From IMG/VR virus record IMGVR_UViG_2693429549_000020, positions 1 to 9,017 of that record: a DNA stretch of 9,017 bases; one strand, written 5' to 3'. Origin of the DNA: a virus. Taxonomy: Duplodnaviria > Heunggongvirae > Uroviricota > Caudoviricetes. A program made the translations under genes and the position numbers. Under the pieces are notes generated by a model. That model saw only the letters and a program-made list of their open reading frames with translations, searched no databases and had not been told where the DNA came from. Below are positions 2,451 through 2,496 of the stretch, piece after piece (position 1 is the stretch's first letter; every line of letters starts with the position of its first letter).

Positions 2451-2496
2451 CTTAAAAAAGCAAAGCCCCGCAAGTGTCATTACCACTCGCAGGGCT
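2451..2496 (-). terminator. Hairpin with U-tract on the minus strand (orphan intrinsic terminator)
   Basis: Stem 2464-2476 pairs with 2484-2496 (11 of 13 positions), loop 2477-2483. On the minus strand it is followed by UUGCUUUUUUAAG (reverse complement of 2451-2463). No plausible minus-strand CDS lies to its right. Confidence 0.4.

Follow-up and report, generated by a model that had tools for sequence, protein, structure and literature searches.

The hairpin at positions 2498-2462 on the minus strand of a PICI-type phage satellite is probably the terminator of a cis-antisense RNA of about 82 nt that lies across the translation start of the first gene of the satellite's early operon, and this RNA is predicted to silence that gene. 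The whole stretch of DNA analysed, referred to here as the window, is 9,017 nt long. The structure of the RNA, its strand, its conservation, a -10 element and the complementarity to its target were all established in silico, and from these we infer its expression, ends and regulatory effect. The best reading is that the antisense RNA would work alongside P4-type isrK/C4 RNAs that are predicted further downstream in the same operon.

Genetic context of the hairpin

By its gene content the window is a capsid-forming phage satellite of the PICI type. The order of genes is a tyrosine integrase (1-1239), AlpA (about 1649-1858), a divergent small repressor, Icd-like genes, a DUF4222 protein (3756-4043), a D5-type primase (D5_N/DUF5906; 4040-5788) and a ClpP-like prohead protease fused to a major capsid domain, which is a single plus-strand ORF (7101-9017) that continues past the window end. 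It is this protease-capsid fusion that marks the island as a capsid-forming PICI. The leftward operon begins with a gene from the ORF list for a small RHH-like regulator of 43 amino acids (2332-2201, minus strand), the match of which to a HicB/RHH-type Pfam family is weak (E = 0.0035) and the relatives of which are annotated as YlcI/YnfO family. A 62-amino-acid ORF (2158-1970, minus strand) is the second gene, and the operon is closed by a second strong terminator, GGCGACCGCCCCCGGTCGCC followed by UUUGUUUUAU (1905-1886, minus strand), directly past the 3' end of alpA.

Rightward transcription is predicted from a sense promoter, TTGACA-18-TAGCCT (2386-2415, plus strand), with a start at about 2422. 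In alignment A1 its TTGACA is invariant, as are three bases (T, A and T) of its -10 element, and the equivalent sense promoters TTGACA-18-TATCTT and TTGACA-18-TATGGT were called in Serratia and Providencia. As this promoter is upstream of the hairpin, the hairpin falls within the 5' leader of the rightward operon. Two direct repeats read from the sequence, GTGGTCACCT (2393-2402 and 2428-2437), bracket the sense -10 and start site and are likely to be the operators of the divergent RHH-like repressor. Each repeat holds the palindrome GGTCACC, one in the spacer of the sense promoter and the other just past the predicted start, and other islands have quite different repeats at the operator position, for example CACCTTG…CAAGGTG. 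The operator region differs among islands, and the cassette to its right, which comprises the hairpin and the sequences described below, is conserved.

The proposed antisense target was delimited by alignment with relatives and comprises a Shine-Dalgarno sequence (GAGG, 2525-2528), the ATG (2534-2536) and the first 18 codons of an Icd-like ORF (2525-2587, plus strand); the hairpin is some 36 nt upstream of this ATG. In E. coli relatives, which have no isrK/C4 here, and in over 119 IMG/VR contigs, an Icd-like protein of 66-68 amino acids starts at the same ATG with the hairpin at this same distance, and the Icd-like domain (NF033153, 'host cell division inhibitor') was confirmed for the target. 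In the window an isrK-C4 module, apparently an insertion of about 290 bp, breaks this ORF at the end of codon 18 (2587). The insert carries its own promoter-like site, TTGATC-18-TATGAT (2606-2635, plus strand), the predicted start of which is the 5' end of isrK (2642), and thus the antisense RNA would control only those transcripts that come from the upstream promoter.

The module is the first of two tandem P4-type units (2588-2884 and 3104-3359), each consisting of isrK, then C4, then an Icd-like ORF. In the first, isrK (2642-2718, plus strand; Rfam, 63.2 bits) is a seqA-like leader with a terminator and C4 (2743-2830, plus strand; Rfam, 79.2 bits) is CI-like; the second has Rfam matches to isrK/c4-a1b1 (3104-3194) and C4 (3220-3308, plus strand). 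The Icd-like ORFs that follow them (2885-3073 and 3360-3530) both match NF033153. By eye, the C4 loop UCCUGUAACG (2786-2795) is complementary to CGUUACAGGA (2865-2874). This site overlaps with AGGAGG, the Shine-Dalgarno sequence for the Icd-like ORF that begins at 2885, which is the arrangement of c4 and icd in phage P1. A frame of 179 amino acids (2534-3073, plus strand) is also open from the Icd-like ATG through the isrK terminator and the whole of C4 into the next Icd-like ORF. It is open in at least 11 sequence variants of other loci (among them L001, L013, L024, L035, L047, L059, L065, L092, L095 and L111), is labelled 'Icd-like' or 'ash family' by annotation pipelines, and resembles the nested leader ORFs over cI in P4. 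The P4 genome itself was matched by both the C4 and the isrK models, and according to PMC10111431 these models find P4 CI RNA and seqA relatives in the PICIs of Gram-negative bacteria.

A predicted minus-strand terminator in the leader

The minus-strand stem, SL2 (2498-2462), was predicted to be an intrinsic terminator hairpin from its fold and from sequence comparison. It has 15 pairs, 12 Watson-Crick and three G·U, of which eight are G-C. The 5' arm GAAGCCCUGCGAGUG (2498-2484) and the 3' arm (2476-2462) enclose a loop of 7 nt (2483-2477), and the stem is followed in the minus-strand reading by a GCUUUUUU tail; positions 2461-2452 read GCUUUUUUAA, and the U-rich part, GCUUUUUUA, occupies 2461-2453. 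A GC-rich stem, a short loop and a U-tract, the sequence features of an intrinsic terminator, are thus all found in the minus-strand reading. In the plus-strand reading the stem is not followed by a T-run, so that termination would be possible only for leftward transcription. A sequence-only reading of this DNA had placed an 11-bp hairpin with a minus-strand tail at 2451-2496; hairpin and tail are indeed there, with a stem of 15 pairs rather than 11, and they ranked first of the 21 terminator-like sites in the window (shuffled sequences gave 10.6 +/- 3.3 sites), among which SL2 is the sole 15-pair stem. The minimum free energy of a 71-nt minus-strand segment was -28.4 kcal/mol, compared with -17.5 +/- 2.6 kcal/mol for shuffled sequences (z = -4.2), and none of 200 shuffles folded equally well.

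SL2 is found at the same position in about 180 related loci and is therefore not a chance feature. It is diverse in sequence, with 52 unique variants that belong to at least 12 unrelated sequence types. The tails of the homologues are U-rich across 13 genera, with a mean of 5.8 U within the 12 nt 3' of the stem, and are weak in some cases, for example UUUCGUCGUUUCU.

The ORF list held no credible minus-strand protein gene to the right of the hairpin, and a protein gene as the terminated unit was rejected: the right-hand ORFs are of 24, 37 and 79 amino acids and have no family evidence, and the longest sits inside the isrK-C4 module and is missing from relatives without that insert. The earlier description of the terminator as an orphan nevertheless does not hold, since the hairpin appears to be part of a compact predicted sRNA gene with a candidate -10 element about 85 nt upstream.

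The conserved structure is that of a minus-strand RNA

Alignment A2 comprised 39 sequences from 13 genera, many of the compared sequences being closely related, and its RNAalifold consensus was two adjacent hairpins, SL1 and SL2. An alternative that had been put forward as a fallback is that the hairpin folds in the 5' UTR of the rightward mRNA, as a stabiliser or regulatory element, and that no minus-strand RNA is made. The sense promoter at 2386-2415 would indeed transcribe through the region, and the complementary hairpin is present in that leader. However, 97.9% of the pair cells in A2 are paired in the minus-strand reading compared with 80.2% in the plus-strand reading, in which 20% of cells are mismatched, and the 159 G·U pair cells of the minus reading have no counterpart on the plus strand, where there are none. 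The plus-strand fold was also the weaker in 50 of 52 SL2 variants (mean free energies of -24.1 kcal/mol for the minus and -17.3 kcal/mol for the plus strand), and the A-tract upstream on the plus strand finds an explanation only as the U-tail of a minus-strand RNA. We therefore regard a plus-strand leader structure as extremely improbable.

Double-sided changes were seen in nine of 23 pairs of A2, and none of 500 shuffles matched the observed values. Among the outer pairs of SL2 the proportion was eight of 10, the inner pairs being left uncounted as the alignment register differs among hairpin types. When the 3' partners were slid by 1-3 columns as a control, pairing fell to 28-54%. The conserved structure is thus specific to the strand opposite the target gene, which is the pattern of a cis-antisense RNA. 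Neither a DNA palindrome nor a plus-strand leader element would yield the G·U asymmetry, which argues against both; for a selected leftward transcript across 2534-2462 it is the strongest available evidence. The unannotated leftward transcript across the rightward leader that the sequence-only reading suggested has in this way gained comparative support, since the structure covaries and is stable only as minus-strand RNA.

A candidate antisense promoter within the target ORF

Codons 3-5 of the Icd-like ORF (AAT CAT ACC) contain, on the opposite strand, a candidate extended -10 element, TGgTATGAT (2549-2541, minus strand). The hexamer TATGAT (2546 to 2541) is preceded by TGG and is 4 nt from the complement of the start codon on the minus strand; it would direct initiation at 2535 +/- 2, in convergent orientation to the sense promoter. 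All 45 unique variants, which represent 182 loci, have the pattern TAnnnT in one of two fixed offsets, the background frequency of this pattern being 1.3% per position. The element overlaps a conserved N-H-T peptide motif, however, and its conservation could therefore be partly at the protein level. Eight versions of the hexamer were found (TATGAT, TATGCT, TATATT, TATAAT, TATTAT, TATAGT, TACGAT and TAATAT), and the TGn extension is present in 99 of 102 sequences. The A at -11 is the complement of the third base of codon 4, and this wobble position has a T in every codon found there (CAT, TAT, ATT and CGT).

Covariance model R1, built from 39 homologues, recovered leader classes B-F, which have different Icd N-termini. 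In these the -10 element is displaced by 6 nt into the ORF, and SL1 has a 5' arm extended by about 6 nt, so that in seven of seven leader classes the 5' edge of SL1 is where transcription is predicted to start. All seven have the same two-hairpin fold, at -30 to -41 kcal/mol. A generic promoter scan of Serratia made exactly two calls in 500 nt, the sense promoter and a convergent antisense promoter, CTGAAA-17-TATGAT. The same kind of scan of the window did not call the antisense promoter, and because the -35 region of the E. coli type is poor the candidate promoter would depend on its extended -10.

A small G+C-rich inverted repeat, CCCGC-AAGG-GCGGG (2554-2567), occupies codons 7-12 of the Icd-like ORF, which correspond to about -19 to -32 relative to the proposed antisense start. 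This repeat is near-invariant in class A cassettes and absent from classes B-F, and two rare variants of it retain pairing on the plus strand alone.

SL1 and complementarity to the translation initiation region

With its ends placed at about 2535 and 2454 from the -10 element and the U-tail, the predicted RNA (2535 to 2454, minus strand) is 5'-AUAGCUACCUCGAUACUUUCGCUAUCGUUGGUGGUUAGAAGCCCUGCGAGUGGUAAUGACACUUGCGGGGCUUUGCUUUUUU-3'. This is considerably shorter than the region 2450-2900 in which a leftward transcript was to be sought. Model R1 matched the minus strand of the window at 2451-2536 with 89 bits (E = 2e-21), and the minimum free energy fold from the predicted start consists of the two adjacent hairpins, at -41.2 kcal/mol.

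In SL1 (2534-2499, minus strand; RNAalifold consensus), an outer stem pairs 2534-2527 with 2506-2499 and an inner 5-bp stem, CGAUA/UAUCG, pairs 2525-2521 with 2513-2509, below an apical loop of 7 nt (2520-2514) of which at least 14 variants exist. The outer stem is formed by an invariant spacer, GGUGGUUA, with UAGCUACC, the complement of the segment from the Shine-Dalgarno sequence to the AUG, and its G·U pairs exist in the minus reading alone, being mismatches on the plus strand. In the 39-sequence alignment 99.6% of SL1 cells are paired, an invariance inflated by the use of an SL1-internal search pattern in two of the three collections of loci; SL2 and the primase-selected set are free of this bias. 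A mid-stem A-U pair is changed to U-A in five of the 39 sequences, from five genera, with zero mismatches.

The predicted RNA is complementary to the translation initiation region of the Icd-like ORF, and covers the Shine-Dalgarno sequence and the ATG except for its last base. The anti-Shine-Dalgarno sequence, CCUC, is at 2528-2525 (minus strand) in SL1 of the window, and in classes B-F (as CCUC or CUCCU) it is located in the SL1 apical loop. The sequence-only reading had suggested an RNA antisense to a leader A/c4-like region; the leader is borne out, at the Shine-Dalgarno sequence and start codon (ATG 2534), but the complementary region is not a C4-like RNA, as isrK and C4 (2642-2830) are downstream. 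As an alternative structure in the sense leader, a small hairpin, AUAGC/GCUAU, was considered and rejected, as it is not conserved in Citrobacter or Xenorhabdus.

Distribution and boundaries of the cassette

Related loci were collected in three ways. More than 119 IMG/VR contigs were found with an 18-mer, and 13 species-representative genomes with a degenerate pattern in which the SL1 mid-stem was left free; the genera of this second collection are Xenorhabdus, Photorhabdus, Serratia, Cedecea, Raoultella, Edwardsiella, Enterobacter, Providencia, Erwinia, Klebsiella and Citrobacter, and a fourteenth match, in an Acidobacteriaceae MAG, was a chance match and was left out. The third collection of 78 loci was picked by primase similarity alone, independently of the leader. 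Of these primase-selected loci, 58 had 2 kb or more of sequence upstream, and 57 of the 58 contained the motif, always opposite the primase strand and 711-2694 nt upstream of the primase (median 1170). The cassette occurs in at least 12 enterobacterial genera besides E. coli. In complete E. coli genomes, a BLAST query of 2393-2641 was matched in 1413 of 5426, most matches including the cassette, and a search of a phage collection gave matches only to the isrK-C4 part, mainly in Stx phages.

The lone exception among the primase-selected loci, L216, has isrK/C4 and lacks the cassette. The same is true of phage P4, and for this reason the P4 literature is not transferable to the cassette. Conversely, loci L002-L005 have the cassette and gave no Rfam match at E <= 0.01, so no C4/isrK. 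As there are loci with either module alone, C4/isrK and the cassette are separable, and in the window both are stacked.

The E. coli matches delimit a conserved module of about 2449-2587, and its left boundary is the end of the U-tail. This boundary bears on two other explanations. One is that the terminator is an insulator only, which would block stray leftward transcription and release a short RNA without regulatory role. Its position is suited to this, since leftward polymerases would be stopped about 30-40 bp short of the sense -10 and start, and 120 nt short of the start codon of the RHH gene, which is read from the same strand; the coincidence of the module boundary with the U-tail is as an insulator would predict. 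However, termination does not require SL1, and yet SL1 is conserved as a minus-strand structure, as shown by its G·U pairs, its one covarying pair and the way in which its edge tracks the -10; and a dedicated, conserved candidate promoter 85 nt upstream is hard to explain for a useless product. We consider insulation alone to be unlikely. Protection of the RHH promoter from convergent transcription had been suggested from the sequence, and a stop some 30-40 bp before the sense promoter makes insulation plausible as a secondary role, but leftward transcripts would be co-directional with the RHH gene and not convergent to it.

The other explanation is that the hairpin is a conditional terminator in the leader of the leftward repressor operon, which would be driven from the promoter at 2541-2549. 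The orientation is the same, and a small minus-strand regulator gene is on the left in five of five annotated relatives. Yet the left module, with its operators and regulator gene, varies freely while the cassette stays with the rightward ORF, the breakpoints being at the U-tail; the region between terminator and RHH gene holds promoter and operator repeats of its own; and the terminator is strong, with no evident alternative anti-terminator fold. An attenuator of this kind is very unlikely.

In Xenorhabdus (L125, L129 and L131) and Photorhabdus (L134), the cassette, with terminator, SL1, Shine-Dalgarno sequence, ATG and a -10 of TATATT, precedes a short unrelated ORF, MYQYTFLTRKGK, and is better conserved than the gene it precedes. 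The cassette must therefore be portable. Beyond this ORF come a strong AGGAGG site and a further gene. Portability before different ORFs could point to an RNA of the Hfq-dependent type that acts mainly in trans on mRNAs of the host or helper phage, its overlap with the Icd-like leader being incidental, and Hfq usually binds to just such a module, a terminator hairpin followed by a U-tail. Against this, the conserved G/U-rich spacer is not exposed for use as a seed but hidden in the SL1 stem, variation lies in the loops, as specificity in a cis-antisense RNA would predict, and in classes B-F the SL1 loop carries the anti-Shine-Dalgarno sequence. We see only a slim chance that the RNA acts mainly in trans.

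Some islands (L150, L177 and L181) have two tandem cassettes about 700 nt apart, at 2079-2157 and 2827-2903 in L150, 1228-1311 and 1927-2005 in L177, and 2026-2109 and 2763-2841 in L181. These are always of different leader classes with different terminator hairpins, and the first precedes a non-Icd ORF (MVIKEHSLLF…). Co-resident cassettes amount to five pairs only, of which four differ: all three tandem pairs, and one of two pairs in the same genome, the other being identical.

Comparison with known antisense systems

No family of Rfam 15 (including sar, SymR, Sok and isrK) matched at the hairpin in a search of the whole window. At 2380-2660 and E <= 10 there were chance-level matches only (E >= 0.43; 14-19 bits, compared with gathering thresholds of 39-106), and the C4 model RF01695 did not match 2451-2536 even at E <= 10, its matches being on the plus strand elsewhere. 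The RNA was not described in the literature that we searched on PICIs, C4/isrK, sar and sRNAs or with the conserved sequence, although this coverage is incomplete and the RNA may have a different name in transcriptome catalogues. PMC10111431 mentions C4/isrK alone, as relatives of CI/seqA in PICIs. We conclude that the predicted cassette RNA is a new RNA family that would use a familiar antisense mechanism and not a new principle.

The closest parallel in arrangement is with RNAs of the following three types. The sar RNA of phage P22 was reportedly described in 1987 by Liao, Wu, Susskind and McClure as a product of the immI region that is antisense to the ribosome-binding site of ant. Like sar, the RNA predicted here (about 82 nt) is a short cis-antisense RNA, sar being about 70-80 nt; from a candidate promoter that opposes the sense promoter at the beginning of the target gene, it would extend across the ribosome-binding site to a predicted intrinsic terminator upstream, and we propose that it may likewise be a second lock on a gene kept off in the quiescent state. 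Unlike sar, with which it shares no sequence or structure homology, it targets an Icd-like ORF of a replication operon rather than an antirepressor, and it is carried by a PICI-type satellite rather than a P22-like phage.

SymR/symE and Sok/mok-hok are type I toxin-antitoxin systems of E. coli with antisense RNAs. As in these, the antisense promoter, here a candidate, is placed within the coding region by a few nt, the Shine-Dalgarno sequence and AUG are both overlapped by the RNA, and the target is a small, potentially host-harmful protein, here a putative one. The difference is that the target is the first cistron of a long operon and not a stand-alone toxin, and no homology was detected.

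In phage P1, c4 blocks translation of icd, and in P4 the CI RNA blocks that of leader ORFs, with sequence differences setting the specificity of immunity. These RNAs (RF01695, with the targets isrK, RF01394, or c4-a1b1, RF03163) resemble the RNA proposed here, and those of P1/P7 c4 and P4 CI in particular, in that a block of translation by RNA would shut the downstream operon. C4/CI RNA is processed out of the sense transcript and pairs by means of short complementary boxes, whereas the cassette RNA would come from the opposite strand, be fully complementary to its target, and have its own candidate promoter and terminator.

Proposed mechanism and significance

We propose that the leftward RNA starts at about 2535 from the extended -10, passes over the start codon and then the Shine-Dalgarno sequence, and has its 3' end at about 2454, in the U-tail. 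By analogy with the systems above, it would pair with the 5' leader of transcripts from the sense promoter, probably by way of a first loop-loop contact of SL1, and this pairing would block ribosome binding at the Icd-like ORF and may create a substrate for RNase III. The downstream genes are tightly packed and overlapping, and an untranslated first ORF would therefore expose the operon, including the primase, to Rho-dependent polarity. Such polarity would help to keep the satellite quiescent and prevent leaky expression of a cell-division inhibitor. The terminator would also halt antisense polymerases before they reach the sense promoter and the repressor promoter/operator region.

Variation in the SL1 loop (at least 14 versions) and in SL2 (at least 12 types) may give the RNA a specificity that differs from island to island. 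Perhaps, more tentatively, the antisense RNA could be the main determinant of immunity and incompatibility in this enterobacterial satellite group: the hypervariable SL1 kissing loop and the terminator hairpin would define specificity types, allowing islands to coexist without cross-silencing, the RNA would replace the P4-type CI RNA in islands without C4/isrK, and silencing of the first cistron would shut the replication operon by Rho-dependent polarity. We regard this wider role as possible but doubtful at present.

PICI and P4-like satellites are common in enterobacteria, and how they are silenced is partly known, through AlpA, small repressors and the P4-type CI RNA. The cassette adds to these a testable candidate RNA regulator at the head of the satellite early operon, and over-long 'Icd-like' or 'ash family' ORFs annotated across the region explain why the predicted RNA gene has been missed. 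Its variable loops suggest an RNA specificity code among co-resident satellites, comparable to plasmid incompatibility and to the heteroimmunity of P1 and P7.
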